Shown here: positions 1-23,510 of the stretch, piece by piece | How positions within the stretch are numbered: position 1 is the first letter of the stretch | How the letters are laid out: each line of letters begins with the position of its first letter | Source of the DNA: Limnohabitans sp. | GTDB lineage: Bacteria > Pseudomonadota > Gammaproteobacteria > Burkholderiales > Burkholderiaceae_C | Reading direction: 5' to 3' | NCBI RefSeq assembly: GCF_044373035.1 | Contig: NZ_JBILQU010000004.1 | Coordinates: 2,826-66,825, forward strand | Length of the DNA: 64,000 nucleotides | The notes under the pieces: generated by a model | The model's database searches: none | The model's input: only the letters and a program-made list of their open reading frames with translations | What the model was told of the DNA's origin: nothing | Translations under genes and position numbers: made by a program

Positions 1-624
1 GGCAAATCCCAATCGGCGGTCATCGCTGCCATTGGCGCCAGAAGCATGCACAAGGTCTGTGTGATGCAAGGACATTTGACCCGCCATCACGGGCATGGGG
101 ACCCCAGTTTCATGGTCGAACCGATCACTGATCCCCTGCCCGCGCCGAATCATGTTCATGGGCTCAGGTTTGTCGTCGTGTTCAAAGGAGCCCCATTGGT
201 GACTGCCTGGCAGCGCCCTCATGCAACCGGCTTGTTCGGTGGCGTCTGACAATGCCACCCAGGCAGTGATGTGCAGATGAGGGTCAAGATAAAAGTAGGT
301 GCTGTCTTGGTGCCATCGTACGTAAGCCGGCGTGTGGGCCTCTTTCAAAAAAAGGGTCGAGTGGTAAACCAAAATGTCAGGGCCAATCACGTCTTCGACA
401 GCATCCAGTATGCGAGGGTGGTGGACCAACTGATCGGCCCAATCAAACAGAAGGTAAGACTTCGATTTTTCTGGAAAATCGATCGGTCCACCCCGAGCCT
501 GCTCCCATGCTTGGAGCTCTGAACGGTAGCGGGTCACTTCGGCTGGTGTGAGCACATCGATCGGAAACAAAAAACCATCCTGCTCGTAGCGCTGGACTTG
601 TTCGGAATTGAGTAAGCGTGTCAT
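1..624 (-). CDS. Phytanoyl-CoA dioxygenase (PhyH) family Fe(II)/2-oxoglutarate oxygenase; 3' end runs off the left window edge
   Basis: Absent from the ORF track because it is open to the window edge. Hand translation of the minus strand from ATG 624..622 gives MTRLLNSEQVQRYEQDGFLFPIDVLTPAEVTRYRSELQAWEQ...AYVRWHQDSTYFYLDPH...LPGSHQWG... This is a PhyH-type N-terminus plus the HxD of the facial triad. Its ATG overlaps the TGA of the upstream gene (ATGA at 621-624). Confidence 0.8.
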   Translation of the reverse strand, partial: MTRLLNSEQVQRYEQDGFLFPIDVLTPAEVTRYRSELQAWEQARGGPIDFPEKSKSYLLFDWADQLVHHPRILDAVEDVIGPDILVYHSTLFLKEAHTPAYVRWHQDSTYFYLDPHLHITAWVALSDATEQAGCMRALPGSHQWGSFEHDDKPEPMNMIRRGQGISDRFDHETGVPMPVMAGQMSLHHTDLVHASGANGSDDRRLGFA

Positions 625-1424
625 GTGGATCCTTTGACATGGGTTTGGGCCGCATCCAACATGCAGCCGAGCATGTTCAGGCGGTCGTGCATGGGCTTGG
701 GAAAGCCCACACGGCTGTGCGTCAACCTTAGCCCCAGGGCTGCTTCGGCCATTTTGTAGCTGAGTGGTCCAGGGTTGATGATGGGGACAGGCAATCGGGA
801 CTGCAGATACGCATGCGATTGGTGCATGGTGGTCGAGCCCAAAATGATCACCTCGGCACCATCATGCTCAATGGCCTTGAGCGCGGCAGCTTCCAGCAAA
901 GGAAAAACGTCTTCCTCTTTACCGGACAACAGATTTTGGTTATCAGGGGATACTTCGATGGCCCGAACAGAGGCACATTTGTGGTGGAGACCGAGCTCGT
1001 CGAGGGCTTTCTTGTAGAGCGGTTTCCATCGACTGGCCATGGTCAAAAACGAAAACCGGTCACCCAGCATGAGCGCTGTCAGCACCGATACCTTGCCGGG
1101 GCCAAACACCGGGATGTCCAGCACCGAGCGCAAAGCAGCCACCCCTGAGTCGCTCATGGTGTCGATGCAGACGGCGTCAAAACCTTCTGCCTGTGCGCGG
1201 CAACCGGCTTCGAAGTTGGCCACATCCGCCAAAACAAAATCGTGATGGCTGGCGTAATTGACGGGACCGGCTTTGACGGGTCGGTATTCAAAGTGGATGT
1301 GGGGCCCCAAGGACAAGCTGGCCAATTGCGCCTGTCGCAACAACAGGTTCTCTGCTGACATGGCGAACGGAACAATCACCAGAACCCGCCACGTAGGCTC
1401 GGGTGCTGCAGTCTCATTGACCAT
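621..1424 (-). CDS. Asp/Glu/hydantoin racemase family protein (hydantoin/allantoin-racemase-like)
   Basis: ORF 621..1442. Start placed at the second ATG (1424) because GGAG lies about 7 nt upstream. GFDAVCIDTMSDSGVAALRSVLDIPVFGPG and AEVIILGSTTMH...PVPIINPG resemble the two pseudo-symmetric halves of hydantoin racemases. Confidence 0.8.
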   Translation of the reverse strand: MVNETAAPEPTWRVLVIVPFAMSAENLLLRQAQLASLSLGPHIHFEYRPVKAGPVNYASHHDFVLADVANFEAGCRAQAEGFDAVCIDTMSDSGVAALRSVLDIPVFGPGKVSVLTALMLGDRFSFLTMASRWKPLYKKALDELGLHHKCASVRAIEVSPDNQNLLSGKEEDVFPLLEAAALKAIEHDGAEVIILGSTTMHQSHAYLQSRLPVPIINPGPLSYKMAEAALGLRLTHSRVGFPKPMHDRLNMLGCMLDAAQTHVKGST

Positions 1425-2094
1425 GGGGGTTCTCCAATTCATTCAAAACATGTTGGGTGCTGCTGACACGACCAAAGAGGCGTTGAAAATTGCGCAAAGT
1501 GACCAGGTGCAAATCTTCGTGCGTGGTGCCGCAAGCATCTTCAACCAGGGTCACCAGGTAACCTCGGTCGGCAGCTTCCCGAGCCGTCGTTTCGACACAC
1601 ATGTTGGTCGAGACGCCGGTGAGGTAAATTTGCTCGCACTGAAGTGCGCGCAGCAAGCTGTCGATGTTGGTCGATGCGAAAGCGCCAATGGTGGTTTTTC
1701 TCAGGACATGTTCACCTGACAAGGGTTTCAATTCATCCAAGATCTCGTGCTCGCGGCTGCCGACGAAGTTGCGAAACTCGACAAACAATTTGCGCATGTG
1801 CGGTGGCGCATCCAAGGCATCGGGATGGGCTGCGCCAATGGTGACATGCAAGATGGGTCGACCCAGGGCGCGAAAATGGTCTCTCAAGCGCAATGAATTG
1901 GGAACGACGAGGGATTCAATGCGGTCAAAACGGTAGTTGCCAATCGTTGAGCCTTCGGCTTGAAGTTTTCGCCCCAAAGCGCCATGGCGTGATCCCGTGG
2001 CGTATTGCAAGTCAATCATGACCAAGGCCGCCGAGCCCGGCTTGATCGGGCGATCGGGCATGTAGGCGCGGATGTAGTCGGTGGACGGGTTCAT
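1414..2094 (-). CDS. Isochorismatase-family cysteine hydrolase (amidase-like), copy 1
   Basis: ORF 1414..2193 trimmed to ATG 2094 (MNPSTDYIRAY...). Triad-like motifs are AALVMIDLQ (Asp), VLRKTTIGAF (Lys) and GVSTNMCVETTAREA (Cys). ATGA overlap with the upstream stop at 2091-2094. Confidence 0.85.
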   Translation of the reverse strand: MNPSTDYIRAYMPDRPIKPGSAALVMIDLQYATGSRHGALGRKLQAEGSTIGNYRFDRIESLVVPNSLRLRDHFRALGRPILHVTIGAAHPDALDAPPHMRKLFVEFRNFVGSREHEILDELKPLSGEHVLRKTTIGAFASTNIDSLLRALQCEQIYLTGVSTNMCVETTAREAADRGYLVTLVEDACGTTHEDLHLVTLRNFQRLFGRVSSTQHVLNELENPHGQ

Positions 2095-2993
2095 GGCTTG
2101 ATTCTTTCGGTCAATGGCGTTCGTGGAGGTTCTGCAAGCAGGACGGATTGTTCGCGGTAACTGTCCACGATTTGGCTGCCAGTGGCGCACCACACCCCGC
2201 TGTGTCCCAGGATGTAGGTCAGTGCACGGGCGAGGTGTTCAATGCGATGGGGTTGGCCCATGATGAACGGGTGGACGGCGATGTTCATCACACGTCCGCC
2301 CTCGGCATACAGGGTGTCAAATTCATCGCAGATTTTTTGTGCAAAAGCCTCGGCTTCCATGCCCCTACGCCAAGCGATGCTGTCGTTGATTTCCATGCTG
2401 TAAGGCAAGGACAGCAATGAACCACGGCGGACCCTGATGGGGGTGGGCTGATCGTCATGGTAGAGGTCGCACAGGTAGTCCATGCCCGACTCGGCCACCA
2501 AGTCGGGGGTCAGGAGCGTGTTCGATGCCGCAGGAGAAAACCAGCCACGCAGACTTTTTCCGGTGATTCGGCGGTGAATGATCTGACACGCTTCAATGGC
2601 GTCCCGTTCTTCTTGCTCGCTCATGCCCCAGTGGTAGCGGGTGTTGAACATGCCATGCGACATGAATTCCCAATGGCGCTTGAGCATGGCCTCGGCAATG
2701 TCGGGGTACATGTCCAAAACCGCCATGGACAGAGACACGGTGCAGGGCAAATTGAACCGGTCGAACACCTCCATCAATCGCCAAACGCCAACCCGGTTGC
2801 CATAGTCGCGCAGACCGTATCCAAGAATATCGGGGTGTGGAACCCTTGGCCATGGGTTTCGAACACGCACCTGTTCCGGCAAGTATTCGTAGTGCTCAAT
2901 GTTGGGCGCAACCCAAAGGGCCAGGCGAGCGCCTTCAGGCCATTGAAGGGCTGGACGAGTGGGGATGGCTGAATAGGCAATCCGATCCTGCAT
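2091..2993 (-). CDS. PuuE/allantoinase-type polysaccharide-deacetylase-family hydrolase, paralogue 1
   Basis: ORF 2091..3101. Start placed at ATG 2993 (GGAGG 5 nt upstream). Motifs: WPEGARLALWVAPNIEHYE, LRDYGNRVGVWRLMEVF, HWEFMSHGMFNTRY, AVHPFIMGQPHRIEHL, HSGVWCATGSQI. These are collinear with the PuuE pattern as I recall it (EYGSRAGVWRLL / GHEICSHGYRW / GLHCRLIGRPARM / HDKVWFARRE). Confidence 0.85.
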   Translation of the reverse strand: MQDRIAYSAIPTRPALQWPEGARLALWVAPNIEHYEYLPEQVRVRNPWPRVPHPDILGYGLRDYGNRVGVWRLMEVFDRFNLPCTVSLSMAVLDMYPDIAEAMLKRHWEFMSHGMFNTRYHWGMSEQEERDAIEACQIIHRRITGKSLRGWFSPAASNTLLTPDLVAESGMDYLCDLYHDDQPTPIRVRRGSLLSLPYSMEINDSIAWRRGMEAEAFAQKICDEFDTLYAEGGRVMNIAVHPFIMGQPHRIEHLARALTYILGHSGVWCATGSQIVDSYREQSVLLAEPPRTPLTERIKP

Positions 2994-3066
2994 GGCCACC
3001 TCCATGGCGTGTGCAGCCAATTCGCCAGAGTCCAGCATTGGGAGGTGCCCCGTCATTTGCGCATTC

Positions 3067-3630
3067 TCAGCGACGTTGGGCCTGGGTTTCAGCCAAATCA
3101 TTCCAGACGTCTTGGCGCTGGATCAAGCCGTCCACAATTTCAAAACGGTCAACGAAACGGATGCCCTCAAAAGGCGTGCCGTCCAGCCAGATGCCGTGCA
3201 AAGTGCCAAAGCAATAGACCACACAGGATTCATCGCCCCAGGATTCGTCAAATTTCTCATAGTTTTTGCCGACCTGTTGGTACCTGCCGTGGGCCCATGA
3301 CACCAACTCTTCGAGTTTGTGCATGACAGGACTTGCAGGAAATCGCATGCTGAAATCAGGTGTCAGCAGCAGCGCCGCATCCGCAAGCTGTCGGTTTTGC
3401 ATGCGCTGTAGAAAATCCCGCACCAGCGCACAAGCATCGACACGTGCAGCGCCGCCGCCACTGAACACACGACCATCGCGTTGGTAGGTGCTGGCTTGGT
3501 GAACAAAAACAGTCGTGCCCGCAGAAGAGGCCGCGATCACAGATCGGGCTGCCTGCGCTACGCGATTGACCAGGCGCTGCTCGGTTTCCGGGCTGTAGCC
3601 CGGCAGTAAGGTGATGGAGATGACGGGCAT
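3067..3630 (-). CDS. Fusion protein: N-terminal 4-oxalocrotonate tautomerase-family domain + C-terminal SnoaL/NTF2-like domain
   Basis: ORF 3067..3699 trimmed to ATG 3630 (GGAG 8 nt upstream), giving MPVISITLLPGYSPETEQRLVNRVAQAARSVI... This has Pro directly after Met and the beta-alpha-beta pattern of 4-OT. About 130 aa follow, ending ...GTPFEGIRFVDRFEIVDGLIQRQDVWNDLAE, which is typical of SnoaL-like folds. Confidence 0.7.
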   Translation of the reverse strand: MPVISITLLPGYSPETEQRLVNRVAQAARSVIAASSAGTTVFVHQASTYQRDGRVFSGGGAARVDACALVRDFLQRMQNRQLADAALLLTPDFSMRFPASPVMHKLEELVSWAHGRYQQVGKNYEKFDESWGDESCVVYCFGTLHGIWLDGTPFEGIRFVDRFEIVDGLIQRQDVWNDLAETQAQRR

Positions 3631-3655
3631 GGGTGCGCTCCAATGGCCAGAGGGT

Positions 3656-4600
3656 TCAGGTCGCAGACGAAGCTTGGGCTGCGCTGGTCTTCCATGCATC
3701 CAGGATGTCGTTGCCGGTGGCCGCCCAAACCCCAGGGTGACTCATGATGTGGGTCAGTGCCTCTTCCAGCGCCCTGATTCGGTAAGGTTGACCAATCACC
3801 CAAGGGTGCAGGGAAATGGCCATGACGCGACCGTTATCGCTGCTCGATTCACGGTAAAGCCCGTCGAATTGATCGATCAACTGGTCCCTGAAGTCGTCTT
3901 CGGTATGGTGGTTTTGAACCAGAATGGTGTGGTCGTCCATGTCAATCGGGTGCGGCATGGCCATCAGCTCACCTGCACGTGTGTGCATGGCATAGGGCAT
4001 GTCGTCATTGACCCAGTCGCAAACGTAGTCGAGACCGGCTTCCTTTAACAAGTCAAGCGTGTGGTGTGATTCTGATTTGGCAGGGGAAAGCCAGCCACGG
4101 ATGCGTTGACCGCTGATGCGCTGGAGCACATCCAGGGAGTGGGTGATCCACTGCCGCTCATCGGCTTCGGCGAGTCCACCATGGTGGATGTGGTCCATGT
4201 CCATGCCATTGGCGATGATTTCCCAGCCGCGTTGTAAACAAGACTGGATCAGCGACGGGTAGCGTTGGGCCACGGCGGCATTGATGGCAACCGAAGCGGG
4301 TATGGCATGTTTTTCCAAAGCTTGCATGATGCGAAAGATGCCAACCCGATTGCCGTAATCTCGCAAGGTGTAATGGCGAAAATCAGGATAGGCCGTTTGC
4401 ATCGCCCCTGGGGGCTTGAAGGGCAATCCTTTCATGTTGAGGGGAAACCACTCGAGAGCCGGTATCACCCAAAGTGCCAAACGAGCACCCTGGGGCCAAC
4501 GCACTGGGGGGCGTTGCGGCAACATGGACCAAGCGTACCGGTCATGGTCCATGCCATAACGACGCAAAGGGTAATCGAGGTAATCGTCGGGCAAACTCAT
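3656..4600 (-). CDS. PuuE/allantoinase-type polysaccharide-deacetylase-family protein, paralogue 2 (active-site His position is Asn)
   Basis: ORF 3656..4693 trimmed to ATG 4600 (MSLPDDYLDYPL...), which forms an ATGA overlap with the upstream stop (4597-4600). Motifs: WPQGARLALWVIPALEWF, LRDYGNRVGIFRIMQAL, GWEIIANGMDMDHIHH, SLHPWVIGQPYRIRAL, HPGVWAATGNDI. Confidence 0.85.
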   Translation of the reverse strand: MSLPDDYLDYPLRRYGMDHDRYAWSMLPQRPPVRWPQGARLALWVIPALEWFPLNMKGLPFKPPGAMQTAYPDFRHYTLRDYGNRVGIFRIMQALEKHAIPASVAINAAVAQRYPSLIQSCLQRGWEIIANGMDMDHIHHGGLAEADERQWITHSLDVLQRISGQRIRGWLSPAKSESHHTLDLLKEAGLDYVCDWVNDDMPYAMHTRAGELMAMPHPIDMDDHTILVQNHHTEDDFRDQLIDQFDGLYRESSSDNGRVMAISLHPWVIGQPYRIRALEEALTHIMSHPGVWAATGNDILDAWKTSAAQASSAT

Positions 4601-5511
4601 GCGGCTTCTCCCACGGTCTGTGCCGCCGCCGTGAATTCGGCGTGGTAATGCGTGTTGAAGTGGCACGCGATTTCCCTGCCAGTGGCCAGCCAAACCTTGT
4701 CATGGCCCGTGATGTAAGACAGGGCCTCTTCAAAGGCCGCCATCCGATAGGGTTGACCAATCAAATAGGGGTGAAGTGGTATGCACATCACCGTTCCCGA
4801 TTTTTCGCCCTCAGCATAGAGCCGGTCAAACTGGCGTTTGAGGATGTCTGCGTAGCGACGCGGTGAAACCAGATTGACGTTGTAGACGATGGTGTCGTTC
4901 ATTTCCAGCGAATAGGGGATGCTGGTCAATCGCCCCTGCTTGACTTTCACGGGGCCGGGTTGGTCATCGTGAAACAGGTCGCAAACATAGGTCAGACCCA
5001 TTTCAGCCACCAAGTCCATGGTTCTGTCGGTATAGGTCAGAGCGGGGGCCAGCCAACCGTCGAGTTTTTGGTCCGTGTGTTTTTTGATCGTGTCGATGGA
5101 ATCTTGGATGACGGCGCGCTCTTGCGCTTCGGTCATTCCCATGAGATAGCGGGTGTTGTATGTGCCGTGAGAATAAAACTCCCAACCATTTTCAGCACAA
5201 GCAGCAATCACCTCGGGGTGGTGTTCACACACGGCCACGTTGAGCGACACACTGCCACGCATGTTGCAGCGTTTCATGGCGTCGAGCATGCGCCAAAATC
5301 CCACGCGATTGCCGTAGTCGCGGTACGAGAAATTTTGAACGTCGGGTGAGGGGCGAGCCCATGGCGCACGAGCAGGATTGCGTGGTGGATCGAGCTCGTA
5401 GTATTCGATGTTGGGGGCGACCCAAAATGCCACTCGGGCACCACCGGGCCAGCTTATTTTGGGCCGCTGGTCGTAGGGCAAGTAGTCATAAAAACCTGGA
5501 TCTCTTTTCAC
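4597..5511 (-). CDS. PuuE/allantoinase-type polysaccharide-deacetylase-family hydrolase, paralogue 3
   Basis: ORF 4597..5511. GTG start with GGGAG 7 nt upstream and a GTGA overlap with the upstream stop (5508-5511). Motifs: WPGGARVAFWVAPNIEYYE, YRDYGNRVGFWRMLDAM, GWEFYSHGTYNTRY, PLHPYLIGQPYRMAAF, HDKVWLATGREI. Confidence 0.85.
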   Translation of the reverse strand: MKRDPGFYDYLPYDQRPKISWPGGARVAFWVAPNIEYYELDPPRNPARAPWARPSPDVQNFSYRDYGNRVGFWRMLDAMKRCNMRGSVSLNVAVCEHHPEVIAACAENGWEFYSHGTYNTRYLMGMTEAQERAVIQDSIDTIKKHTDQKLDGWLAPALTYTDRTMDLVAEMGLTYVCDLFHDDQPGPVKVKQGRLTSIPYSLEMNDTIVYNVNLVSPRRYADILKRQFDRLYAEGEKSGTVMCIPLHPYLIGQPYRMAAFEEALSYITGHDKVWLATGREIACHFNTHYHAEFTAAAQTVGEAA

Positions 5512-6194
5512 GCCCGTGCTCCCGCAGCTGGGGCCAATTGACGCAAGCCTTCCAGGGTTTCCTTGACCGAAATGACGTCCGCGTATTTCAAGGCCATGTC
5601 GTACAAGTTGGAAAAGTGAGGGGATTCATGTTTGTCGGCAACACACTCTTCCGGCACGATGGTGCGAAAACTGCGTTGCAGGCTGTCCACCACAGTGGCC
5701 CGAACACAACCAGAGGTCGAACCTCCTGTGACGACAACCGTGTCCACACCATGGAAGGTGAAGATCGAGCCCAGGTTGGTTTCGAAAAAAACCGACGCCA
5801 TTCGTTTGTTGATGATGATGTCGCGTTCGCGATCAATCTTCAGGCGGTCGTCAAACTCTGCACGGCGACTGCCAACCTTGATGTTTTGCAGGGAATCCGG
5901 AGTGTTGGAGCGGGTCCCCCAGACGCCGCAATCTTCGCCGGAAGGCATGTAGGCCACATAAGTCCATACCACAGGAAACCCTTTGGACCTGAATTCGGCA
6001 GCCAACTCATTGACATGGTCCAGTTGGTGAGGATCGGTTTCATAGGCGGTGGCAAATTCGCCAACGCATGTGTAGGCTTTTTGCAAATCGATGTTGATCA
6101 AGGCGGGCATGCGACCGAAACCAAAACGTTTGCGGGTCGGAGCGGCCTTGATGTCGGCGAAAAGCTGTCGAGCTGTCTTGTCGGAAGTTTGCAT
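5508..6194 (-). CDS. Isochorismatase-family cysteine hydrolase, copy 2 (N-carbamoylsarcosine amidase / maleamate amidohydrolase NicF-like)
   Basis: ORF 5508..6443 trimmed to ATG 6194 (MQTSDKTARQLF...). Motifs: FGFGRMPALINIDLQKAY (Asp), IINKRMASVFF (Lys), VVTGGSTSGCVRATVVD (Cys). Confidence 0.85.
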   Translation of the reverse strand: MQTSDKTARQLFADIKAAPTRKRFGFGRMPALINIDLQKAYTCVGEFATAYETDPHQLDHVNELAAEFRSKGFPVVWTYVAYMPSGEDCGVWGTRSNTPDSLQNIKVGSRRAEFDDRLKIDRERDIIINKRMASVFFETNLGSIFTFHGVDTVVVTGGSTSGCVRATVVDSLQRSFRTIVPEECVADKHESPHFSNLYDMALKYADVISVKETLEGLRQLAPAAGARA

Positions 6195-6331
6195 TTTAAA
6201 AAAACTTTCAGTGTGTGGTCGGTGATGATCGGTCGTGATCAGGTGCGGCAAGCATGCAGGATCGACCTCTGACAAATGGTGCATGCATCGATTTGTCCTG
6301 TCAATAGAACATTTGACAGTGAAGCGCTGGT

Positions 6332-7696
6332 TCAATGCTTTGGTGGCGCTTTGACAAGGTCTAACCAGTGCGCCAATTTGAGCTTGCCGGTGCAAAGCTG
6401 GTGGGAGGCCTGCAAAACCTGTTGGGCGTGGTCTTCGGACCATACGCGACCCGTCAAATCGAGGAATTTATGCGTCAACTCCTCTTCGCTGTAAGGCGAT
6501 GCATCATCGCCCCGGTTGACGCCAGCTTCCCCGGTCCATTGACGGCCATCGATGTCGGTGATCACCACACGAGCGGGGCGTTCGTTGGGCAATCGGCGTG
6601 ACATGTCAGGGTCTTCCGAGATTTCAACCTTTTGGGCCAGGGCCAAGACCCGAGGGTCTCGCACGGCTTCCCAGGTAAAGCTCGAAAGTGCACTGCTTTG
6701 GTGAACAATGCGCGTGGCCACAGCAAAGGGGACAGAAAATTTGGCAGCCAAAGTATTGCGTGGCGCAGGATCGTTGAGTTCGGCGGCCAGGTGGTAGGTG
6801 GTCACTTGAATGCGTGCGATGCGATCGGCCTCGGGCAAAGGGATTTGTGCTGCCATCGCGTCCAGCGCATCCAGTGTGCCGTGGTTGTAACGGCAGCAAG
6901 AATGCAATTTGAAGTAGTTGTGCATCAAATGCCAGTCGCTGCCCAAGTCGCGCAGCAAGATATTCACGTCAAATTTTTCGGAGACGATTTCACCAAACAA
7001 CGAGCTCAAGCCATCTCGCTCTCCAGTGAAACCGCAGGCGACCAGTTGAGAAGCCAAAACACCATTTCGGTTGCTCAGGCCCGCGTAAACGTTGCGTACC
7101 AGACCCCCTTCGAGCATGGTGCGCTTGGAGGTGGCGGTGGTCAGGGAGGAGCTGACGTTGATGGTTTCCTTCATGCTGGAGGGATCTGAACCCAGCACGC
7201 GTGCGCAAGCGGCTGCCGCCCCAATGGTGCCCCAAGTGCCGTGGGGATGCATGGCGCCACGCAATTGGGAGGCTGCACCAATGCGAGAGCCCACTTCGTA
7301 ACCCACCACCAGGGCCGACAGAAAGCGCTCCGCATCCACCCCCTGCATCTCGCTCAAAGACAGCGCAGCGGGCAGCACGTGAATGGCCGGGTGACCTCTG
7401 GAGAACCGGTTTCCCTCGTCCATTTCCAAAAATGTGCCTGCTGTGCCGTTGAGCAGGGCGGCTGCTTCGGCATGAACTTGCCGACCTGTTCCAATGAGTG
7501 TTGCACCACTGCCAAAGCCCATGGCTGCATTGAGCCGTTGCATCTCTGGTTCTGCGGAGCCTGCCACGATGGATGCCAGAGTATCGGCAAGCACCCAGCC
7601 CGTGTGGGCTTGAACTTCAAGGGGTAAATCTGCGTAGTTCAGGTTTGAGGCGAAATGACTGAGTTGGTCAAGTTCTTCGGTTTTCATGTCAGGCAT
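6332..7696 (-). CDS. MmgE/PrpD family protein (2-methylcitrate-dehydratase superfamily)
   Basis: 454-aa ORF. The N-terminus ...LSHFASNLNYADLPLEVQAHTGWVLADTLASIVAGS... and the length are typical of MmgE/PrpD. The start is either ATG 7696 (8-nt overlap with the upstream gene) or ATG 7687. Confidence 0.85.
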   Translation of the reverse strand: MPDMKTEELDQLSHFASNLNYADLPLEVQAHTGWVLADTLASIVAGSAEPEMQRLNAAMGFGSGATLIGTGRQVHAEAAALLNGTAGTFLEMDEGNRFSRGHPAIHVLPAALSLSEMQGVDAERFLSALVVGYEVGSRIGAASQLRGAMHPHGTWGTIGAAAACARVLGSDPSSMKETINVSSSLTTATSKRTMLEGGLVRNVYAGLSNRNGVLASQLVACGFTGERDGLSSLFGEIVSEKFDVNILLRDLGSDWHLMHNYFKLHSCCRYNHGTLDALDAMAAQIPLPEADRIARIQVTTYHLAAELNDPAPRNTLAAKFSVPFAVATRIVHQSSALSSFTWEAVRDPRVLALAQKVEISEDPDMSRRLPNERPARVVITDIDGRQWTGEAGVNRGDDASPYSEEELTHKFLDLTGRVWSEDHAQQVLQASHQLCTGKLKLAHWLDLVKAPPKH

Positions 7697-8573
7697 TCTG
7701 TTGGAAGTTGTGAAAGATGTCGGCTGGCTGGGTCCAGTTCACATCCGGCCGTGTGTGCATGTCAGCAAGCAACTGACGAAGTGAGCCTATGCGGCTGGAC
7801 ATGCCACAGACCCAAGGATGCAGCGTGAGGCCAAATACAAGTTGGCGTTGCTGTTCAATGGCCTCCAAGCGAAGCCTGTCAAAGGCACTCAAAGCAAGCC
7901 GGGCGTGGCTGCGAGGATCGAGGTTCCTTAACCATTGGCTCTGGACGTCATCCCATTCGGCGCCAAGCGGTATGGCGGTGATGCCCGGTTGTGTGTTGAG
8001 CATGTAAGGTTGATCGTCATTGGTCCAATCGAGGGTGTAACGAATGCCAGCTTGCGCCAGTAACTTGTAGGTTTCCACGGTGGTCCCCCAATCCTGACTC
8101 AGCCAACCCAGAGGTTTGTGTCCCGTGCACGACACGATGGTGTTCAACGAATGCTCGATGATTTCGGCTTGTTGCTCGAGTCGGAATCCCGAATGCATCA
8201 GGACGGAGGCCGATTCAGCGTGACCGATCCACTCGCAGCCCCATTCGTTGAGGGTTTCGACCAGTTGCGGGAGTCTCTGAACGGCCACTGAATTGGCTGC
8301 GATGGCAGGACGTATGCCCCTTGCTTTCAAGGCGTCCAGCACTCTGAAAATTCCGATGCGCAAACCGTATTCGCGTTGTGTCCAGCTCCTGTAATCCGGG
8401 GTAAAACTTCCGAATTCGCCGACGAAGCGGGGGTCGCGAAGGCTGTCCACGGGGGGAAGTGCTACCCAGTGCTCCAGGCACAACACCACAAAAGCTTGAA
8501 GTCGGGCCGATGTGCCTGTTGGCTCTTGAGGGCGCTTGGGCAAAGCCGAATAGCCGTAGTGAGAGTGGTCCAT
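7689..8573 (-). CDS. Divergent PuuE/polysaccharide-deacetylase-family protein, paralogue 4; first gene of the minus arm
   Basis: ORF 7689..8573. It keeps the family skeleton in weakened form: QREYGLRIGIFRVLDAL, GCEWIGHAESAS, LTLHPWVCGMSSRIGSL. No obvious Shine-Dalgarno sequence. Confidence 0.75.
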   Translation of the reverse strand: MDHSHYGYSALPKRPQEPTGTSARLQAFVVLCLEHWVALPPVDSLRDPRFVGEFGSFTPDYRSWTQREYGLRIGIFRVLDALKARGIRPAIAANSVAVQRLPQLVETLNEWGCEWIGHAESASVLMHSGFRLEQQAEIIEHSLNTIVSCTGHKPLGWLSQDWGTTVETYKLLAQAGIRYTLDWTNDDQPYMLNTQPGITAIPLGAEWDDVQSQWLRNLDPRSHARLALSAFDRLRLEAIEQQRQLVFGLTLHPWVCGMSSRIGSLRQLLADMHTRPDVNWTQPADIFHNFQQNA

Positions 8574-8587
8574 TTGTGCAAAGGGGC

Positions 8588-8616
8588 TTGACAGCCCAAC
8601 TGAGTCAATACATAGT
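8588..8616 (+). promoter_or_regulatory. Candidate sigma70 promoter of the plus arm (-35 TTGACA, 17-nt spacer, -10 CATAGT)
   Basis: TTGACA at 8588-8593, a 17-nt spacer, then CATAGT at 8611-8616. It lies about 60 nt upstream of the ATG at 8678. Pattern match only. Confidence 0.4.
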
Positions 8617-8623
8617 CTAGCCC

Positions 8624-8647
8624 AATTGTTCTATTTTAAGAACAATT
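8624..8647. promoter_or_regulatory. Perfect 9+9 bp inverted repeat with a 6-bp spacer (AATTGTTCT-ATTTTA-AGAACAATT): candidate operator of the divergon
   Basis: Read directly. The arms are 8624-8632 and 8639-8647. It sits immediately downstream of the candidate -10 in the only intergenic region between the two arms. It fits the generic GntR-type GT-Nx-AC dyad. Confidence 0.55.
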
Positions 8648-8677
8648 AAACTCCATTCTATTTTTCGAGGACACCTC

Positions 8678-9895
8678 ATGACTTCCGAAAACCGCATTTC
8701 CCGTCGACTGGTGCTGCAAGCTGGTGCAGCCACTTCTGTTCTGGGCGCTCCAGCCCTGCTGCTTGCGCAACCCAAACCCATCAAAATTGGTTTGGTTCAC
8801 CCTGTTAGCGGAGGCTTGGCTTACAGTGGTGGTCAAGGACGCTTGGGTTGCGTCATGGCCATTGACGCCATCAACGCAGCCGGCGGTATCAAGTCCATGG
8901 GCGGCGCCAAGTTGGAGGCAGCGCTGGGTGACTCGCAGTCGCGCCCTGAAGTTGGTGTTGCCGAAGTGGAGCGCCTGCACCAAGAAGGTGTTTCTGCTTA
9001 CATTGGCTGCTTCTCCAGCGCCATTGCCTTACCTGCAACGCAGGCTGCAGCCAAATACAACACACCTTTCCTGATTGACGTTGGCGTGTCCGACTTGATC
9101 GTCAATCGTGGATTGAAAAACGTGTTTCGCTTGGCCCCTGGCTTTGGCAAATGCGCCGACGATGCCGTCTTGGCGCTGGGTGAAGTCAACAAAGCGGCTG
9201 GTGGTGTTGCCAAGACTGCGGTCCTGGTTCATGAGGAGTCTGAATTCGGCACCGGCACTGCCAAGTTGTTGGCAGGAAAGCTGCCATCCATCAACATTCA
9301 GGTCGCGGAAGTCATCAAGCATGCCAACCCAACCCGTGATTTCTCCAACGTGGCACTGCGCATCAAGGGTCTCAAGCCCGATTTGGTGATCATGAGCAAC
9401 TACCAAAATGAATATGTGTTGTTGGCCCGTACCATGCACCAACAAAAAGTTGAGGTTGCTGCGATGTTCAGCGTGTTGGGTGGCGGCTTCAACTACAGGC
9501 TTGTCAAAGAGCAGCCACAAGTGGCTCAGCACATGATGGACTTCAACCATTGGTTCAATCCGCGCAGTGCGCAGGCCATGGAGATGAAGAAAAAAGTTGA
9601 AGCGACCGGAAACCTCTTCACGTTTGAGGTGTATTGCGGCTGGAATTCGGTGATGTTGTATGCCGACGCTTTGGAGCGAGCCAAGTCTGCTGACAAGGAA
9701 AAAGCGATTGCAGCACTCGAGAGCAGCACTTGGTCAAACCACTTCATGCCCTACGGCGAGACCAAATTCGTCAACGGCCAAAACACCGGTGGCCGTGCCG
9801 CATTGCTGCAAGCCACTGCCACCGACATTGAGGTGGTATGGCCCAACCAGTTTGCATCGGTCAAACCCGTCTACCCACGCCCCAAAATGGGGTAA
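8678..9895 (+). CDS. ABC transporter substrate-binding protein, LivJ/branched-chain-amino-acid (type 1 PBP) family
   Basis: ORF 8678..9895 with GAGGA 6 nt upstream. Signal peptide MTSENRISRRLVLQAGAATSVLGAPALLLAQ, then PIKIGLVHPVSGGLAYSGGQ..., a typical family N-terminus. Confidence 0.9.
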   Translation: MTSENRISRRLVLQAGAATSVLGAPALLLAQPKPIKIGLVHPVSGGLAYSGGQGRLGCVMAIDAINAAGGIKSMGGAKLEAALGDSQSRPEVGVAEVERLHQEGVSAYIGCFSSAIALPATQAAAKYNTPFLIDVGVSDLIVNRGLKNVFRLAPGFGKCADDAVLALGEVNKAAGGVAKTAVLVHEESEFGTGTAKLLAGKLPSINIQVAEVIKHANPTRDFSNVALRIKGLKPDLVIMSNYQNEYVLLARTMHQQKVEVAAMFSVLGGGFNYRLVKEQPQVAQHMMDFNHWFNPRSAQAMEMKKKVEATGNLFTFEVYCGWNSVMLYADALERAKSADKEKAIAALESSTWSNHFMPYGETKFVNGQNTGGRAALLQATATDIEVVWPNQFASVKPVYPRPKMG

Positions 9896-9930
9896 ACCCT
9901 TAGCCATTTTTAACTGGCAGTTTTCATTGG

Positions 9931-9952
9931 GGCCCGCTTGTCAAGGCGGGCC
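9931..9952 (+). promoter_or_regulatory. Intercistronic GC-rich stem-loop between the binding-protein and permease genes
   Basis: GGCCCGC (9931-9937), an 8-nt loop, then GCGGGCC (9946-9952). No U-run follows. It could be a partial terminator or an mRNA-stabilising hairpin, as often seen after SBP genes. Confidence 0.3.
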
Positions 9953-9987
9953 TCGGGATGACTGCGACCTAACTTAGGGGTACTGAT

Positions 9988-10857
9988 TTGGACTTGACAA
10001 TTTTAGGTGCGGCTGCAATCAACGGCCTCCTCATTGGGGGTATTTACACCCTGGTGGCTTCAGGATTGACCTTGATCTACGGTGTCTTGCACATCATCAA
10101 TTTTGCGCATGGCAGCATGTTGATGTTGGCCATGTTTGGTGTTTATTACCTGTTGATCAAGCTGGGCATCGATCCCTATGTTTCGCTTTTGATCATGGTT
10201 CCGGTGATGTACCTTTTTGGTTTTTGGTTGTACAAATTATTGATCGGAAGACTGGCTCAAGGCAAAGACGAGAACATTCTTTTGATCACTTTGGGCTTGT
10301 CCATCCTGATCGAGAACTTGGCCTTGATGTTTTTCAAGGGCGACACGCGAACCATCTCCGTGCCCTACTCAGACGTGATGGTCGAGTTAGGACCCACACT
10401 GGTTTCGCTGCCCAAGATCATTTCCTTTGGCGCGGCCATGGTCTTGTGCGCACTTCTGGGGCTTTTCATACAGCGCACGGACACCGGCAGAGCCATTCGG
10501 GCTGTGGCCAAGGAGCGAGTGGGCGCTCGTCTGGTGGGCATCAACGTGGACCGTGTCTTTGCCATCTCTTATGGTATCGGCCTGGCCACCCTAGGTGCTG
10601 CAGCCTGCCTGTTGATGCCAATTTTCTATGTGTCACCCACCACCGGTCATATCTTTGTCATGGTGGCCTTTACCGTGGTGGTCTTGGGCGGGATGGGTAG
10701 CTTCTTGGGAGCGATTGTGGGCGGTCTGATTGTCGGCTTAACGGAGTCCTTTGGCGGTTTGTTCCTTGGAGAAAGTCTTGGGCAAATCGGCATTTCGCTG
10801 ATTTTCATCCTGATTTTGCTCTTCCGACCTTCTGGACTTTTTGGAGCCAAGCGATGA
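9988..10857 (+). CDS. Branched-chain amino acid-type ABC transporter permease (LivH-like)
   Basis: 289-aa polytopic hydrophobic ORF with a LivH-like sequence. TTG start as given in the track. Confidence 0.85.
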   Translation: MDLTILGAAAINGLLIGGIYTLVASGLTLIYGVLHIINFAHGSMLMLAMFGVYYLLIKLGIDPYVSLLIMVPVMYLFGFWLYKLLIGRLAQGKDENILLITLGLSILIENLALMFFKGDTRTISVPYSDVMVELGPTLVSLPKIISFGAAMVLCALLGLFIQRTDTGRAIRAVAKERVGARLVGINVDRVFAISYGIGLATLGAAACLLMPIFYVSPTTGHIFVMVAFTVVVLGGMGSFLGAIVGGLIVGLTESFGGLFLGESLGQIGISLIFILILLFRPSGLFGAKR

Positions 10858-11828
10858 CTGACAGTTCGCGTTCCATCGGATGGCCCTTGCATCTGAGTCT
10901 GTTGGCTCTGGCGGTGGTCTTCCCATTCGTTTTTTCGACACCCTTCATGGTGAATTTTGGCGTACTTGCTTTGTTCTATGCCTTCATCGGACAGTCTTGG
11001 AACATTGCCGGGGGCTTTGCTGGGCAACTGTCTTTCGGACACGTTGTCTTCTTTGGTGCCGGTGCATATGCCTCAACAATATTGCAATTGCGCTTTGGCA
11101 TGAACCCTTGGCTCGGGTTGCCCGCCAGCGCAATTGCCGGAGGTATTGTTGGCGGCATCATCGGGTTCCTTTCTTTTCGTGCCGGCCTCAAAGGCTCTTA
11201 CTTCGCTCTGATCACTCTGGCATTTGCAGAGGTGTTGCGAATTTTGGTCAATTCAGTGGAGTTCACCGGTGGTGGTTTGGGCTTGCTGATTCCTGCCAAG
11301 ATCGGCGCAGATAACTTCCAGTTTTCAGAACGCATTGGTTTTTATTTCGTCATTCTTTCCCTGACTGTGTTGTCGGTGGCCATTGCAGTCTGGCTCAAGC
11401 ATTCCCGTTTTGGCGCGCAGTTGGCAGCGATTCGTGAAAACGAAGATGCGGCCATGGCCCTGGGCATCAATGTCTTCAACGAGAAGGTCAAGGTCATGGT
11501 CCTGTCTGGTGCCCTGTGTGGCATTGGGGGCAGTTTCTTTGCGCAATATTTTCTCTACATCGATCCCACCATCGTTTTTGGTGTGGACAAATCGGTCGAG
11601 ATGTTGCTGGTGAGCATGATCGGTGGTGCAGGCACGGTTTACGGACCACTGATTGGTGCGGTTTTGTTGGCTGGCGTCAGTGATGCCACCCGTGTGCTGA
11701 CCAACGTTCAAGGCTTGTCCTTGGTGCTGTATGGCTCCTTGCTGGTCATCATCATTGCCTTTTTGCCAAACGGTTTGATTGACTTGTTCAAACGCATTGG
11801 CCAGCGCATCAAACAAAGGGGCCAGTGA
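10854..11828 (+). CDS. Branched-chain amino acid-type ABC transporter permease (LivM-like)
   Basis: 324-aa polytopic ORF. ATGA overlap with the preceding stop (10854-10857). Confidence 0.85.
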   Translation: MTDSSRSIGWPLHLSLLALAVVFPFVFSTPFMVNFGVLALFYAFIGQSWNIAGGFAGQLSFGHVVFFGAGAYASTILQLRFGMNPWLGLPASAIAGGIVGGIIGFLSFRAGLKGSYFALITLAFAEVLRILVNSVEFTGGGLGLLIPAKIGADNFQFSERIGFYFVILSLTVLSVAIAVWLKHSRFGAQLAAIRENEDAAMALGINVFNEKVKVMVLSGALCGIGGSFFAQYFLYIDPTIVFGVDKSVEMLLVSMIGGAGTVYGPLIGAVLLAGVSDATRVLTNVQGLSLVLYGSLLVIIIAFLPNGLIDLFKRIGQRIKQRGQ

Positions 11829-12571
11829 TGCTCAAGGTGACCGGATTAACCAAAATTTTTGGCGGCCTCAAAGCGGTTGATGACGCCTCATTGGAAGTCG
11901 CTGAAGGGCGCATCGTCGCCTTGATTGGCCCCAATGGAGCGGGAAAGACGACGCTTTTCGCTTGCATAGCGGGCTTCCAATCCATCAATGCAGGTCGCGT
12001 CGAGTTTTCCGGGAATGACATCACAGCTCGGCCTGTTCACGAAATTGCACGACAGGGGATGGTGCGCACATTTCAAATTACCCAGCCTTTTGCCAAACTC
12101 ACGGTGCATGAAAACATCGCGGTGGGTGCCTACCAAGAGTACATCGACCGCGATGAGGCTTGGGAGCACGCCCGGCGTATTGCTGATCAGGTGGGCATGG
12201 GGCAGATTCTGGATCAGCCCGCCGCAGACTTGACCGTGGCTGGACGCAAGCGACTGGAGTTGGCTCGGACTTTGGCCACAGGCCCCAAGCTGTTGTTGCT
12301 GGACGAGGTCATGGCGGGATTGAATCCATCGGAAATCATCGACATCATCGACATCATCCAGAAGATCCGCGCCAGTGGTGTCACGGTGCTGTTGATCGAG
12401 CACGTGATGCAGGCTGTGATGAGTTTGTCCGAGCACATCTATGTGTTGTCGTACGGCAAGATCATCGCCAACGGTGCACCCCACGAAGTGGTCAATGACC
12501 CTGCGGTGATTGAGGCGTATTTGGGACGTGGCGCCGCTGAGCAGATGGCGAAGGAGGCAAATCATGCTTGA
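11825..12571 (+). CDS. ABC transporter ATP-binding protein (LivG-like)
   Basis: Walker A GPNGAGKTT, Walker B LLLLDE, and a LivG-type C-terminal extension. Start is GTG 11825 or ATG 11828, overlapping the upstream stop. Confidence 0.9.
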   Translation: MMLKVTGLTKIFGGLKAVDDASLEVAEGRIVALIGPNGAGKTTLFACIAGFQSINAGRVEFSGNDITARPVHEIARQGMVRTFQITQPFAKLTVHENIAVGAYQEYIDRDEAWEHARRIADQVGMGQILDQPAADLTVAGRKRLELARTLATGPKLLLLDEVMAGLNPSEIIDIIDIIQKIRASGVTVLLIEHVMQAVMSLSEHIYVLSYGKIIANGAPHEVVNDPAVIEAYLGRGAAEQMAKEANHA

Positions 12572-13265
12572 GATTCGTGCGCTGCATGCTGGTTATGGCA
12601 AGGTTGAAATTTTGCGCGGCATCGATCTGGATGTGGGCCAAGGCGAGATCGTGGCGGTACTTGGCAGTAATGGTGTCGGCAAGTCCACGCTCAACAACAA
12701 CATCTCTGCGCTTTACACGCCGTTTGCAGGTTCTATCCGATTCAGAGGTCAGGAATTGGTGGGCAAAAGCTCGTCTGACATTGTCAAACTGGGCGTGATC
12801 CACGTGCCTGAAGGGCGTCGCATATTTCCCAACCTGAATGTGCTGGAAAACCTTGAACTGGGCAGTCTTGTCCGGGGCAAGGCCAACCGTCAAAAAAATC
12901 TTGAAAAAGTGGTTGCCATTTTTCCGCGTCTGAAGGAGCGTTTCAGCCAACTGGCGGGCACTTTGTCCGGTGGAGAGCAACAAATGCTCGCCATTGGTCG
13001 AGGGCTGATGTCTGAACCAGATCTGTTGATCATGGATGAGCCCTCTTTGGGCTTGTCACCGTTGTTGGTTGAAGAGATGTTTGCTCTTATTCAGAAGATC
13101 AATCAAGAAGGCCAGTCCATTTTGTTGATGGAGCAAAACGCCGTGCAAACACTGGCCATTGCACACCGGGCCTACATCATTGAAAACGGCGCGGTGGCCA
13201 TGAAGGGTAAAGCGGCCGATTTGGCTCGCGACCCCGATTTGCGAAAAAACTACTTGGGACTTTGA
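12564..13265 (+). CDS. ABC transporter ATP-binding protein (LivF-like)
   Basis: ORF 12510..13265 trimmed to ATG 12564 (AAGGAGG at 12551-12557). Walker A GSNGVGKST, signature LSGGEQQ, Walker B LLIMDEPS. Confidence 0.9.
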   Translation: MLEIRALHAGYGKVEILRGIDLDVGQGEIVAVLGSNGVGKSTLNNNISALYTPFAGSIRFRGQELVGKSSSDIVKLGVIHVPEGRRIFPNLNVLENLELGSLVRGKANRQKNLEKVVAIFPRLKERFSQLAGTLSGGEQQMLAIGRGLMSEPDLLIMDEPSLGLSPLLVEEMFALIQKINQEGQSILLMEQNAVQTLAIAHRAYIIENGAVAMKGKAADLARDPDLRKNYLGL

Positions 13266-13269
13266 ACAC

Positions 13270-14040: not shown

Positions 14041-14047
14041 ATTGAAC

Positions 14048-14359
14048 ATGCCCGCTGTTGCCTTGACCGATTTGGTCCATGTCATTCGCAGTAAAAATGC
14101 GGGGCCCACTTTGTTGACACTCGATTTGTTTTTTCGGGATCGCCATGGTTACGATTGCGCCATCCAAAGTCCACAATTGTCGACGGCCTCGGTGGCCCAT
14201 TTGTATGGCTGCGCCCCAGCCCGCATGAGCCGTTATGACATGGCTGATTTGTGCGCCATCAAGTTCACTTTGCCACGTAAAGTGTGTGCGGGCTCACCTG
14301 GGGATGGTGATGTCTACGGCGCTCAGCAGCATGGACCATTGTTGGGGGTCATGCTTTGA
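14048..14359 (+). CDS. DUF4387 domain protein (corresponds to the C-terminal part of AtuA-type proteins)
   Basis: ORF 13991..14359 trimmed to ATG 14048. MPAVALTDLVHVIRSKNAGPTLLTLDLFF...GDGDVYGAQQH matches my recollection of DUF4387. Confidence 0.7.
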   Translation: MPAVALTDLVHVIRSKNAGPTLLTLDLFFRDRHGYDCAIQSPQLSTASVAHLYGCAPARMSRYDMADLCAIKFTLPRKVCAGSPGDGDVYGAQQHGPLLGVML

Positions 14360-15756: not shown

Positions 15757-15762
15757 GTTCCT

Positions 15763-16554: not shown

Positions 16555-16577
16555 AAACCTCCTATTACCCCAATCAC

Positions 16578-21897: not shown

Positions 21898-21902
21898 GGG
21901 CC

Positions 21903-23472: not shown

Positions 23473-23510
23473 TCGGTCACACTGCGGCCTTTATAAAAAA
23501 GGAGACTCCC

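Follow-up and report, generated by a model that had tools for sequence, protein, structure and literature searches.

The 64,000-nucleotide stretch analysed here, referred to as the window, covers positions 2,826 to 66,825 of the forward strand of contig NZ_JBILQU010000004.1 (NCBI RefSeq assembly GCF_044373035.1, Limnohabitans sp.). An earlier note on this DNA had described two translationally coupled gene pairs, each combining a protein resembling the allantoinase PuuE with an isochorismatase-like protein, and had read them as an imidase and half-amidase logic used twice. Both overlapping gene pairs are parts of a divergent catabolic cluster of about 20 kb, carried by a Limnohabitans-like lake bacterium. 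By direct reading of the open reading frame (ORF) list, the minus strand between 621 and 8573 holds nine tightly packed genes, transcribed in the order PDA4, PrpD-like, ISO2, PDA3, PDA2, tautomerase-SnoaL, PDA1, ISO1 and Rac. Four PuuE-like paralogs are thus encoded in the cluster, the fourth being PDA4 (7689-8573). The features are the following:

621-1424, minus strand: Rac, member of the Asp/Glu/hydantoin racemase superfamily without both catalytic Cys
1414-2094, minus strand: ISO1, isochorismatase-family Cys amidohydrolase of the BiuH/TrtA/RutB-like clade; accessory
2091-2993, minus strand: PDA1, A-type PuuE-like amidohydrolase coupled to ISO1; accessory
3067-3630, minus strand: tautomerase (Pro-1)-SnoaL-like fusion (PDB 9MUA, Pfam, NCBIfam)
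3656-4600, minus strand: PDA2, B-type (degenerate) PuuE-like protein, always beside PDA3
4597-5511, minus strand: PDA3, A-type PuuE-like protein, likely the catalytic ring-opening subunit
5508-6194, minus strand: ISO2, isochorismatase-family Cys amidohydrolase of the NicF/Ami/CSHase clade, likely a half-amide amidase
6299-6318, no strand assigned: palindrome TGTCAATAGAACATTTGACA between the PrpD-like gene and ISO2; the ISO2 operon likely has its operator and promoter here
6332-7696, minus strand: MmgE/PrpD-family protein (Pfam MmgE_PrpD_N and MmgE_PrpD_C); accessory
7689-8573, minus strand: PDA4, divergent third type of PuuE-like protein; accessory
8678-13265, plus strand: Liv-type ABC transporter, with binding protein (8678-9895, Pfam Peripla_BP_6), two permeases and two ATPases
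13270-14040, plus strand: SDR oxidoreductase (Pfam)
about 14051-14359, plus strand: DUF4387 protein (Pfam)
14356-15756, plus strand: AtuA-like protein (DUF1446; Pfam)
15763-16554, plus strand: GntR/UTRA regulator of the HutC type (Pfam GntR and UTRA)
16578-17873, plus strand: LeuC-like large subunit of an aconitase-family hydratase (NCBIfam)
17870-18361, plus strand: LeuD/DmdB-like small subunit of an aconitase-family hydratase (NCBIfam)
18358-19806, plus strand: soluble flavoprotein resembling fumarate reductase, urocanate reductase and TcuA (PDB, NCBIfam)
19803-20699, plus strand: lyase of the phosphoenolpyruvate (PEP)-mutase/isocitrate lyase (ICL) superfamily, near methylisocitrate lyase (NCBIfam PrpB, PDB, KRCGH motif)

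The overlapping genes and their conservation

The coordinates that had been proposed for ISO1, PDA1, PDA3 and ISO2 match the ORF list, and the two claimed overlaps are present on the minus strand: an ATGA at 2091-2094, shared by the TGA of PDA1 and the ATG of ISO1 (PDA1 ends in ...atcaagccATGAacccg), and a GTGA at 5508-5511, shared by the TGA of ISO2 and the GTG of PDA3 (ISO2 ends in ...gcacgggcGTGAaaagag). A further ATGA overlap, absent from the earlier note, joins PDA3 to PDA2 at 4597-4600. What had been taken for the second pair is really a triplet, ISO2-PDA3-PDA2, with 4-nt overlaps throughout and with PuuE-like proteins of two different types. Elsewhere in the minus arm, ISO1 overlaps Rac by 11 nt and PDA4 overlaps the PrpD-like gene by 8 nt, and in the plus arm the LeuC, LeuD, flavoprotein and lyase genes are chained by 4-nt overlaps.

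Overlaps of 4 nt are frequent in bacterial operons and unremarkable on their own, and their conservation across loci is more informative than their mere presence. A genome scan with ISO2 returned more than 578 relatives, the best 80 of which (77-96% identity) were used for the analysis of related loci. The NTGA overlap between ISO2 and PDA3 has been retained in 65 of 78 loci, with ATG (23), GTG (23) or TTG (19) as start codon, the ATGA between PDA3 and PDA2 in 52 of 72, and that between PDA1 and ISO1 in 19 of 27. In a few loci an insertion of about 85-175 nt replaces the 4-nt overlap at the ISO2/PDA3 or the PDA3/PDA2 junction; this is a repeated GC-rich element (…GAGCGCCGCGCCGAGCCGTCTCAAGCAAGC…CCCCCTCGGGGGG…), similar to repetitive extragenic palindromic (REP) sequences or miniature inverted-repeat transposable elements (MITE), and at times it is found in tandem.

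The best 80 ISO2 loci belong mostly to freshwater Burkholderiales, and also to Rhodanobacter, Caballeronia, Actimicrobium and one metagenome-assembled genome of the Enterobacteriaceae. All 33 loci flanked on either side by 8 kb or more contain the triplet, and the accessory-gene counts refer to these loci; it is likewise present in every longer contig among the 80. PDA1 and ISO1, which occur together, were found in 14 and 13 of the 33, Rac in 20, the PrpD-like gene in 18, PDA4 in 12 and the tautomerase fusion in 11, and the SDR, DUF4387 and AtuA-like genes appear in a minority of related loci only. PDA1-ISO1 is a dispensable accessory pair. The idea that the two pairs carry out two successive rounds of ring opening and deamidation, or act on two related substrates, is favoured in its second half: a pair found in about 13-14 of the 33 loci speaks for related or alternative substrates more than for obligatory successive rounds.

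Neither can the pairing be regarded as duplicated. ISO1 and ISO2 are 27% identical and fall into different clades, identity between PDA1 and PDA3 is 44%, and the two pairs have opposite gene orders. PDA1-ISO1 and ISO2-PDA3 are therefore independent assemblies of like parts.

In related loci the PrpD-like and ISO2 genes are always separated by a spacer, and in the window it contains TGTCAATAGAACATTTGACA, a perfect 20-bp palindrome present as a single exact copy, with near-matches at chance level. The motif CAAATGTTCTATTGACAG is conserved in the corresponding PrpD-like/ISO2 spacer of other loci, and in compact clusters a GntR regulator adjoins the core. The HutC-type GntR regulator encoded at 15763-16554 probably uses the palindrome as its operator. 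Immediately downstream of the palindrome, on the coding strand, there is another inverted repeat, GACAAAT-N-ATTTGTC. Scans for promoters and terminators gave counts at or below shuffle expectation, and an Rfam search at gathering threshold of positions 1-22000 of the window detected no riboswitch or other known RNA.

Lake-water metagenomes contain matches to the window, and freshwater metatranscriptome contigs from close relatives (90-95% identity) cover the cluster and cross its gene junctions. One of them (2251-4030) includes PDA1, the tautomerase fusion and PDA2, another (5139-6098) PDA3 and ISO2, and a third (601-1611) Rac and ISO1. In one lake metatranscriptome, contig depth, which is a rough measure only, was about 66-105 for the binding-protein gene (8605-9938) versus 10-27 for the hydrolase genes.

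The G+C content of the cluster region (1-20000) is 0.52-0.58, versus 0.60-0.65 over much of the rest (20000-38000 and 52000-64000), and in other taxa the cluster has also been found on plasmids and beside insertion sequence (IS) elements. The low G+C content and these settings are compatible with horizontal mobility.

Relatives of the encoded enzymes

The PuuE-like proteins are about 30% identical to PuuE, and PDA1, PDA2 and PDA3 match Pfam Polysacc_deac_1. With the NCBIfam model of PuuE (TIGR03212) they score 146.4 (PDA1), 137.7 (PDA2), 143.3 (PDA3) and 61.2 bits (PDA4), all far below the cut-off of 424.6. In PuuE a Glu-His-Trp triad (E36, H126, W130), together with His259, stands in place of the metal site of CE4 enzymes (Ramazzina 2008, as quoted in PMC11424739). 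In PuuE numbering, N34, E36, H126 and H259 are kept in 75 of 75 PDA3 sequences; the same four are retained by PDA1, and E36, H126 and H259 by PDA4, while W130 is kept in none of the four paralogs. The best PDB matches of PDA3 are 1Z7A (1e-33), PuuE itself (3CL6, 8e-30) and the BpIH-like entry 3S6O (6e-25). In this fold, matched at sequence level, and in the acid/base residues E36 and H259, the A-types agree with imide hydrolases of the PuuE/CE4 kind. The earlier note had suggested that some cyclic imidases share this fold, and the literature bears this out: BpIH (EC 3.5.2.16) has been modelled on PDB 3S6O (91% identical) and is reported to be 61% identical to PuuE (PMC11424739), and further examples are CIH of P. 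putida and the fungal HxnM (bioRxiv 10.1101/2021.08.17.456622).

The genes of the A-type (PDA3-like) and the B-type (PDA2-like) lie side by side in every lineage examined, and the second type is degenerate at the active site. In PDA2 the position of H126 is occupied by Asn in 55 of 71 beta-proteobacterial orthologues; across lineages, B-types carry Asn, Ser, Ala or Gly at this position, and 4 of 6 distant ones have Ser or Thr in place of H259. Identity among loci is 75-98% for PDA3 (78 loci) and 58-96% for PDA2, so that B evolves faster than A. We infer that A and B form a hetero-oligomeric hydrolase made of a catalytic A and a degenerate B subunit, and the loss of active-site residues in B-types, which always adjoin an A-type gene, suggests a pseudoenzyme partner.

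Both ISO proteins match Pfam Isochorismatase (ISO1, E 1e-35; ISO2, E 6e-28), and the Asp/Lys/Cys triad that had been noticed in them (IDLQ, K, and TNMCVE or TSGCVR) is invariant in 27 of 27 ISO1 and 86 of 86 ISO2 orthologues. True isochorismatases are not known to have a Cys nucleophile. A grouping with these enzymes, which would have spoken against amidase activity, was not observed: the best solved relatives of both proteins are amidases, and EntB/VibB give weak matches to ISO1 (E 9e-6 to 2e-4) and none in the match list of ISO2. An identity as true isochorismatases of the EntB/PhzD type was therefore rejected.

The suspected kinship of ISO2 to N-carbamoylsarcosine amidase (CSHase) and NicF is also apparent, since among PDB matches it groups with maleamate amidases and N-carbamoylsarcosine amidase. 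Its best match is Ami of P. putida S16 (4L07, E 3e-32, 38% identity over 189 residues), followed by N-carbamoylsarcosine amidase (E 2e-28 to 4e-27; 1NBA, 4e-27) and NicF (3OT4, 7e-19). In the alignment the Cys of ISO2 falls on the Cys of 4L07, which is replaced by Ala in the variant entry 4L08. In its isochorismatase fold and Asp-Lys-Cys triad, ISO2 agrees with the maleamate amidohydrolases. The pathway context of NicX, NicD and NicE was not found, as the cluster contains no dioxygenase or deformylase, and at 38% identity ISO2 is not an orthologue of Ami.

The best PDB matches of ISO1 are BiuH (6AZO, 3e-19), the 'cysteine hydrolase' 6XIX, which we take to be the triuret hydrolase TrtA, and RutB (8BKD). 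Two specific identities were rejected. BiuH (NF050097) gives 85 bits against a cut-off of 370, and its substrate-binding residues Lys145 and Gln215 (PMC5806882) are not kept, the first position being Ile or Val and the second falling in a gap; RutB (TIGR03614) gives 72 bits against a cut-off of 378.

Rac matches Pfam Asp_Glu_race (E 8e-31), and its best PDB matches are the allantoin/hydantoin racemases 3QVJ/3QVK and 5LFD. It carries IDTMSDSG and LGSTTM where HpxA (3QVJ) has the catalytic-Cys motifs IACFGDPG and LGCGGM, and Thr and Ser at the two catalytic-Cys positions are invariant in 40 of 40 orthologues. An assignment to the hydantoin/allantoin racemases was rejected on these grounds, and Rac is probably not a two-thiol racemase. 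Maleate isomerase, too, uses a Cys pair. In two Rhodoferax-like contigs the hydratase and lyase genes do not adjoin Rac, and the genes that come after it encode a PhyH-family dioxygenase, a SnoaL-like protein and a protein of the tannase/feruloyl-esterase family; in one of the two contigs, a sulfatase gene and toxin-antitoxin genes separate ISO1 from Rac. The tautomerase fusion is similar to the PDB entry 9MUA 'Tautomerase' (E 1e-41) and matches Pfam SnoaL_2 and the NCBIfam 4-OT family, with its Pro-1 invariant in 37 of 37 sequences. The PDB matches of the PrpD-like protein are IDS-epimerase (2HP3, 5e-23) and IRG1.

In the plus arm, the LeuC-like protein exceeds the cut-offs of NF001614 (520.9 bits; cut-off 385) and hacA_fam (411.4; cut-off 385.7), and the LeuD-like protein that of the LeuD/DmdB family (144.4 bits; cut-off 109), which places both in the homoaconitase/LeuCD group at family level, no specific equivalog model being matched. 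The flavoprotein resembles 1QO8 (6e-44) and 6T85 (3e-36) and stays below the NCBIfam cut-offs for flavocytochrome c and TcuA. The lyase carries a KRCGH motif, and its PDB matches are methylisocitrate lyases (about 1e-54), petal death protein and dimethylmalate lyase (3FA3, 2e-46); with 290.1 bits against the 354.4 of the NCBIfam PrpB model (TIGR02317), it was rejected as a PrpB orthologue and is a close relative only.

A proposed route from ring opening to the carbon skeleton

The association of the triplet with the hydratase and lyase genes extends far beyond the Burkholderiales of lakes. In Paraburkholderia kururiensis and Burkholderia plantarii (in the latter on the plasmid locus NZ_CP066800), GntR-LeuC-LeuD-FAD-ICL-like lyase genes, FAD denoting the flavoprotein, are divergent to ISO2-A-B-MFS; Rhodanobacter has Aldedh-ISO2-A-B-GntR-LeuC-LeuD-ICL. 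Among distant plasmid-borne versions (42-63% identity), Sphingomonas pJE1 carries ISO-A-B-LeuC-LeuD-ICL, Acidiphilium ISO-A-B-LeuC-LeuD-FAD-porin-MFS, and Neorhizobium ISO-A-B-LeuC-LeuD-ABC(5)-lyase-FAD, on one strand throughout. In Beta- and Alphaproteobacteria the ABC transporter genes keep their place beside the cluster. That the linkage of triplet, LeuCD and lyase is kept at 42-63% identity is strong evidence that these genes serve one pathway.

The A+B pair is ancient: it is found in Beta-, Alpha- and Gammaproteobacteria as well as in Arthrobacter, with 42-58% identity in Salipiger, Sphingomonas, Acidiphilium, Neorhizobium, Novosphingobium, Agrobacterium, Terrarubrum and Arthrobacter. The amidase next to it is of the ISO2 type in most cases, of the amidase-signature family in Agrobacterium and of the asparaginase type in Arthrobacter, these last two without an isochorismatase gene. 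Salipiger has an amidase-signature gene besides the ISO gene, and Terrarubrum carries nitrilase-type, amidase-signature and asparaginase genes in the vicinity. Such displacement would fit a role as hydrolase of the primary amide left after ring opening. In Arthrobacter crystallopoietes (pLDW-10, 175038-193934) the A+B genes follow a three-subunit molybdenum hydroxylase, and the cluster further includes the asparaginase-type amidase, an adenylate-forming enzyme, a protein of the NADPH:quinone oxidoreductase family, a PaaI thioesterase and XdhC. Molybdenum hydroxylases convert N-heteroaromatics to dihydroxy rings, which are imide tautomers, and the Arthrobacter cluster is a candidate pathway for an N-heteroaromatic acid, isonicotinate-like. 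Its gene set resembles the route, described in older literature, from isonicotinate through citrazinate to a dioxopiperidine-carboxyl-CoA.

The conserved core contains no deaminase, aminotransferase or ammonia-lyase, and therefore all nitrogen would leave by hydrolysis, as an imide requires, in two hydrolytic steps. Since the partner enzymes act on nitrogen-free carboxylates and exactly two hydrolytic activities precede them, the conversion of an imide to a half-amide and then to a polycarboxylate would be the simplest chemistry. We consider it reasonably probable (about 0.6) that the cluster strips nitrogen hydrolytically from a cyclic imide, or a close cyclic amide, and then degrades the carbon skeleton. 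The imidase and half-amidase logic proposed earlier is thereby supported by genomic context for the ISO2 module, but the pairs provide only the entry to a larger pathway, with hydratase, lyase, flavoprotein, transporter and regulator.

From the gene identities, residues, overlaps, synteny and lake expression, we infer the following catalytic steps, and likewise the heteromer that would catalyse one of them. The substrate would be taken up by the Liv-type ABC transporter, and its ring opened by PuuE-fold A (PDA3) with degenerate B (PDA2), probably as a hetero-oligomer. ISO2, as a Cys-Asp-Lys amidase, would hydrolyse the half-amide, releasing NH3 and a cis-unsaturated (maleate- or aconitate-like) polycarboxylate; should the product of ISO2 be saturated, the fumarate-reductase-like flavoprotein could desaturate it, or this enzyme could reduce a side chain. 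The LeuCD/homoaconitase-like enzyme would then hydrate the polycarboxylate, and the PrpB-like lyase would carry out a retro-aldol cleavage, yielding pyruvate (or glyoxylate) and a di-acid. The add-ons, that is, PDA1-ISO1, PDA4 with the PrpD-like protein, the tautomerase-SnoaL fusion and the Cys-less Rac, would be lineage-specific and would probably broaden the substrate range.

Several observations weigh against this interpretation. The evidence for the A/B heteromer consists of fixed adjacency, translational coupling and the degeneracy of B. ISO2 scores nearly equally for N-carbamoylsarcosine amidase and maleamate amidase, so that a ureido substrate is possible. In Salipiger the triplet lies beside an ATP-dependent hydantoinase/oxoprolinase; in Terrarubrum it lies beside a nitrilase-type hydrolase, an amidase (amidase-signature) and an asparaginase, with RutA further off; and in Rhodoferax and Comamonas endophytica it adjoins neither LeuCD nor the lyase. 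The names given to homologues are generic ('polysaccharide deacetylase family', 'allantoinase', 'nicotinamidase-related amidase'). Lastly, the RNA data are assembled contigs of relatives at 90-95% identity, for which DNA carry-over is possible.

A rival reading is a ureide pathway, in which the PDAs would open a hydantoin, dihydropyrimidine or allantoin-like ring, the ISOs decarbamoylate the product and Rac supplies the enantiomer. PuuE itself opens a hydantoin ring, ISO2 matches N-carbamoylsarcosine amidase with E 2e-28 to 4e-27, the relatives of ISO1 (BiuH, TrtA, RutB) all act on ureido or carbamoyl amides, Rac resembles allantoin/hydantoin racemases, and the triplets of Salipiger and Terrarubrum stand among hydantoinase/oxoprolinase and nitrilase-type genes, with RutA nearby. 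However, the product of such a pathway would be an amino acid or amine, whereas the partner enzymes use carboxylates without nitrogen and are not accompanied by any conserved deaminating enzyme; in addition, Rac is without both catalytic Cys, ISO1 is without the K145 and Q215 of BiuH, and every equivalog model remains far below its cut-off. As an account of the cluster it is unlikely, although it suits the accessory PDA1-ISO1 pair better than the core.

It could also be thought that the PDAs deacylate or deformylate a linear N-acyl half-amide, similar to N-formylmaleamate, before deamidation by ISO2, in the manner of NicD and NicF. De-N-acylation is the chemistry of the CE4 superfamily, ISO2 is closest to NicF/Ami, enzymes that act after a deformylase in the 2,5-dihydroxypyridine pathway, and identical downstream acids would be expected. 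But no ring-cleaving dioxygenase able to produce an N-acyl amide of this kind is conserved with the triplet, the PDAs, with E36 and H259 retained, are nearest to the metal-independent branch of PuuE and not to metal-dependent deacetylases, and the known NicD is an alpha/beta hydrolase, all of which makes this proposal quite unlikely. Ordinary purine catabolism, with the PDAs as allantoinase paralogs and the ISOs as unrelated neighbours, is highly improbable: although some homologues are named 'allantoinase' and PuuE is the best NCBIfam match of all four PDAs, a PuuE identity was rejected because their scores are 61-146 against 424.6 bits, Trp130 is present in no paralog and H126 is Asn in 55/71 PDA2, and, moreover, neither urate oxidase, HIU hydrolase, OHCU decarboxylase, allantoicase nor a ureidoglycolate enzyme, nor any gene leading from urate to allantoin or allantoate, appeared among the scanned cluster genes of the window or related loci, and the PDAs stay linked to ISO2 across loci, with translational coupling.

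Returning to hydrolysis of a cyclic imide, the natural substrate can be suggested tentatively only. The cluster might encode a widespread bacterial route that salvages the maleimides released when tetrapyrroles (chlorophyll, bilin and heme) break down, among them hematinic acid, methyl-ethyl-maleimide and methyl-vinyl-maleimide; we hold this proposal to be possible, if rather doubtful. Hematinic acid and methyl-ethyl-maleimide are chlorophyll breakdown products (PMC12860425). In the case of hematinic acid, A+B would open the ring and the NicF-like amidase would give 2-methyl-3-(2-carboxyethyl)maleate, the one-carbon homologue of 2-methyl-cis-aconitate, which LeuCD would hydrate and the PrpB-like lyase would split into pyruvate and glutarate; variants with vinyl or alkylidene groups would fall to the flavoprotein, the tautomerase and the PrpD-like protein. 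The proposal is consistent with the enzymes of methylcitrate/homoaconitate type (PrpD-like, HacA-family LeuCD, PrpB-like), with the habitat (lake bacterioplankton and plant-associated Burkholderiales and Rhizobiales) and with the genes for glutarate-type CoA-transferase, acyl-CoA dehydrogenase or electron-transfer flavoprotein that lie beside some clusters. A CoA-transferase about 5 kb from the Rhodanobacter cluster, with succinate-glutarate CoA-transferase as best match (535 against a cut-off of 750), is a weak hint of a link to glutarate. A carboxy-glutarimide, as in the isonicotinate/citrazinate route, or a carboxy-succinimide, either leading to tricarballylate-like acids, fits about as well.

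Comparison with known systems

Literature searches on imidases with half-amidases, on PuuE with isochorismatase, on dimethylmaleate hydratase and dimethylmalate lyase, and on the catabolism of maleimide, hematinic acid, citrazinate and isonicotinate yielded no description of this cluster. Homologues of A, B and ISO2 number in the thousands, with generic names only, and the carriers of these families include abundant freshwater Comamonadaceae and plant-associated bacteria, ISO2 being 77-96% identical across genera. A defined function would annotate a common dark part of the turnover of dissolved organic nitrogen, and a two-subunit architecture would extend the PuuE/CE4 imidases, a group of interest for biocatalysis (BpIH is used for a pregabalin intermediate). 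If tetrapyrrole maleimides were indeed the substrates, an open end of the natural degradation of chlorophyll and heme would be closed.

The cyclic-imide pathway of Blastobacter sp. A17p-4 (Ogawa/Shimizu) reportedly consists of an imidase and a half-amidase. The cluster would follow the same logic, from imide to half-amide to dicarboxylate, as this and the other imidase systems (BpIH, CIH, HxnM), and with BpIH, CIH and HxnM it has in common a ring-opening enzyme of PuuE/CE4-like fold. However, the match of PDA3 to the BpIH-like 3S6O (E 6e-25) is weaker than that to PuuE, and while BpIH and PuuE are homotetramers, a fixed pair of A-type and degenerate B-type proteins, as found here, has been described for neither. 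The half-amidase differs as well: HxnN is a FAAH-like amidase-signature enzyme (bioRxiv 10.1101/2021.08.17.456622), whereas the corresponding protein here belongs to the isochorismatase family of Cys hydrolases. With NicF/Ami (3UAO/3OT4, 4L07/4L08) ISO2 shares the isochorismatase fold, the Asp-Lys-Cys triad, the TSGCVRATVVD motif and the proposed deamidation of a cis-unsaturated half-amide, but the cluster is without NicX, NicD and a Cys-type maleate isomerase, and ISO2 is equally near to N-carbamoylsarcosine amidase.

For the downstream part, two systems offer a parallel. The nicotinate fermentation of Eubacterium barkeri employs dimethylmaleate hydratase (DmdAB) and 2,3-dimethylmalate lyase, and the methylcitrate cycle employs aconitase and PrpB. 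As in both, a two-subunit hydratase of the aconitase family, acting on a substituted cis-unsaturated acid, would here be followed by a lyase of the PEP-mutase/ICL family that yields pyruvate and an acid. Unlike them, the pathway would be fed by a hydrolytic front end acting on an imide or amide, and not by nicotinate fermentation or propionate activation; furthermore, the lyase does not reach the cut-off of PrpB, and only generic HacA/LeuC models recognise the large subunit. The linkage of PuuE-like and racemase-family genes, as well as E36 and H259, recalls PuuE with the allantoin racemases HpxA/AllR, from which the cluster departs by the sub-threshold PuuE score, the lack of Trp130 and of purine context, and the Thr/Ser of Rac in place of Cys.

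In sum, the chemistry of imidases and half-amidases, PuuE-fold imidases and NicF-type amidases were already known, and what would be new here is the two-subunit PuuE-fold architecture and its coupling to the downstream hydratase and lyase.

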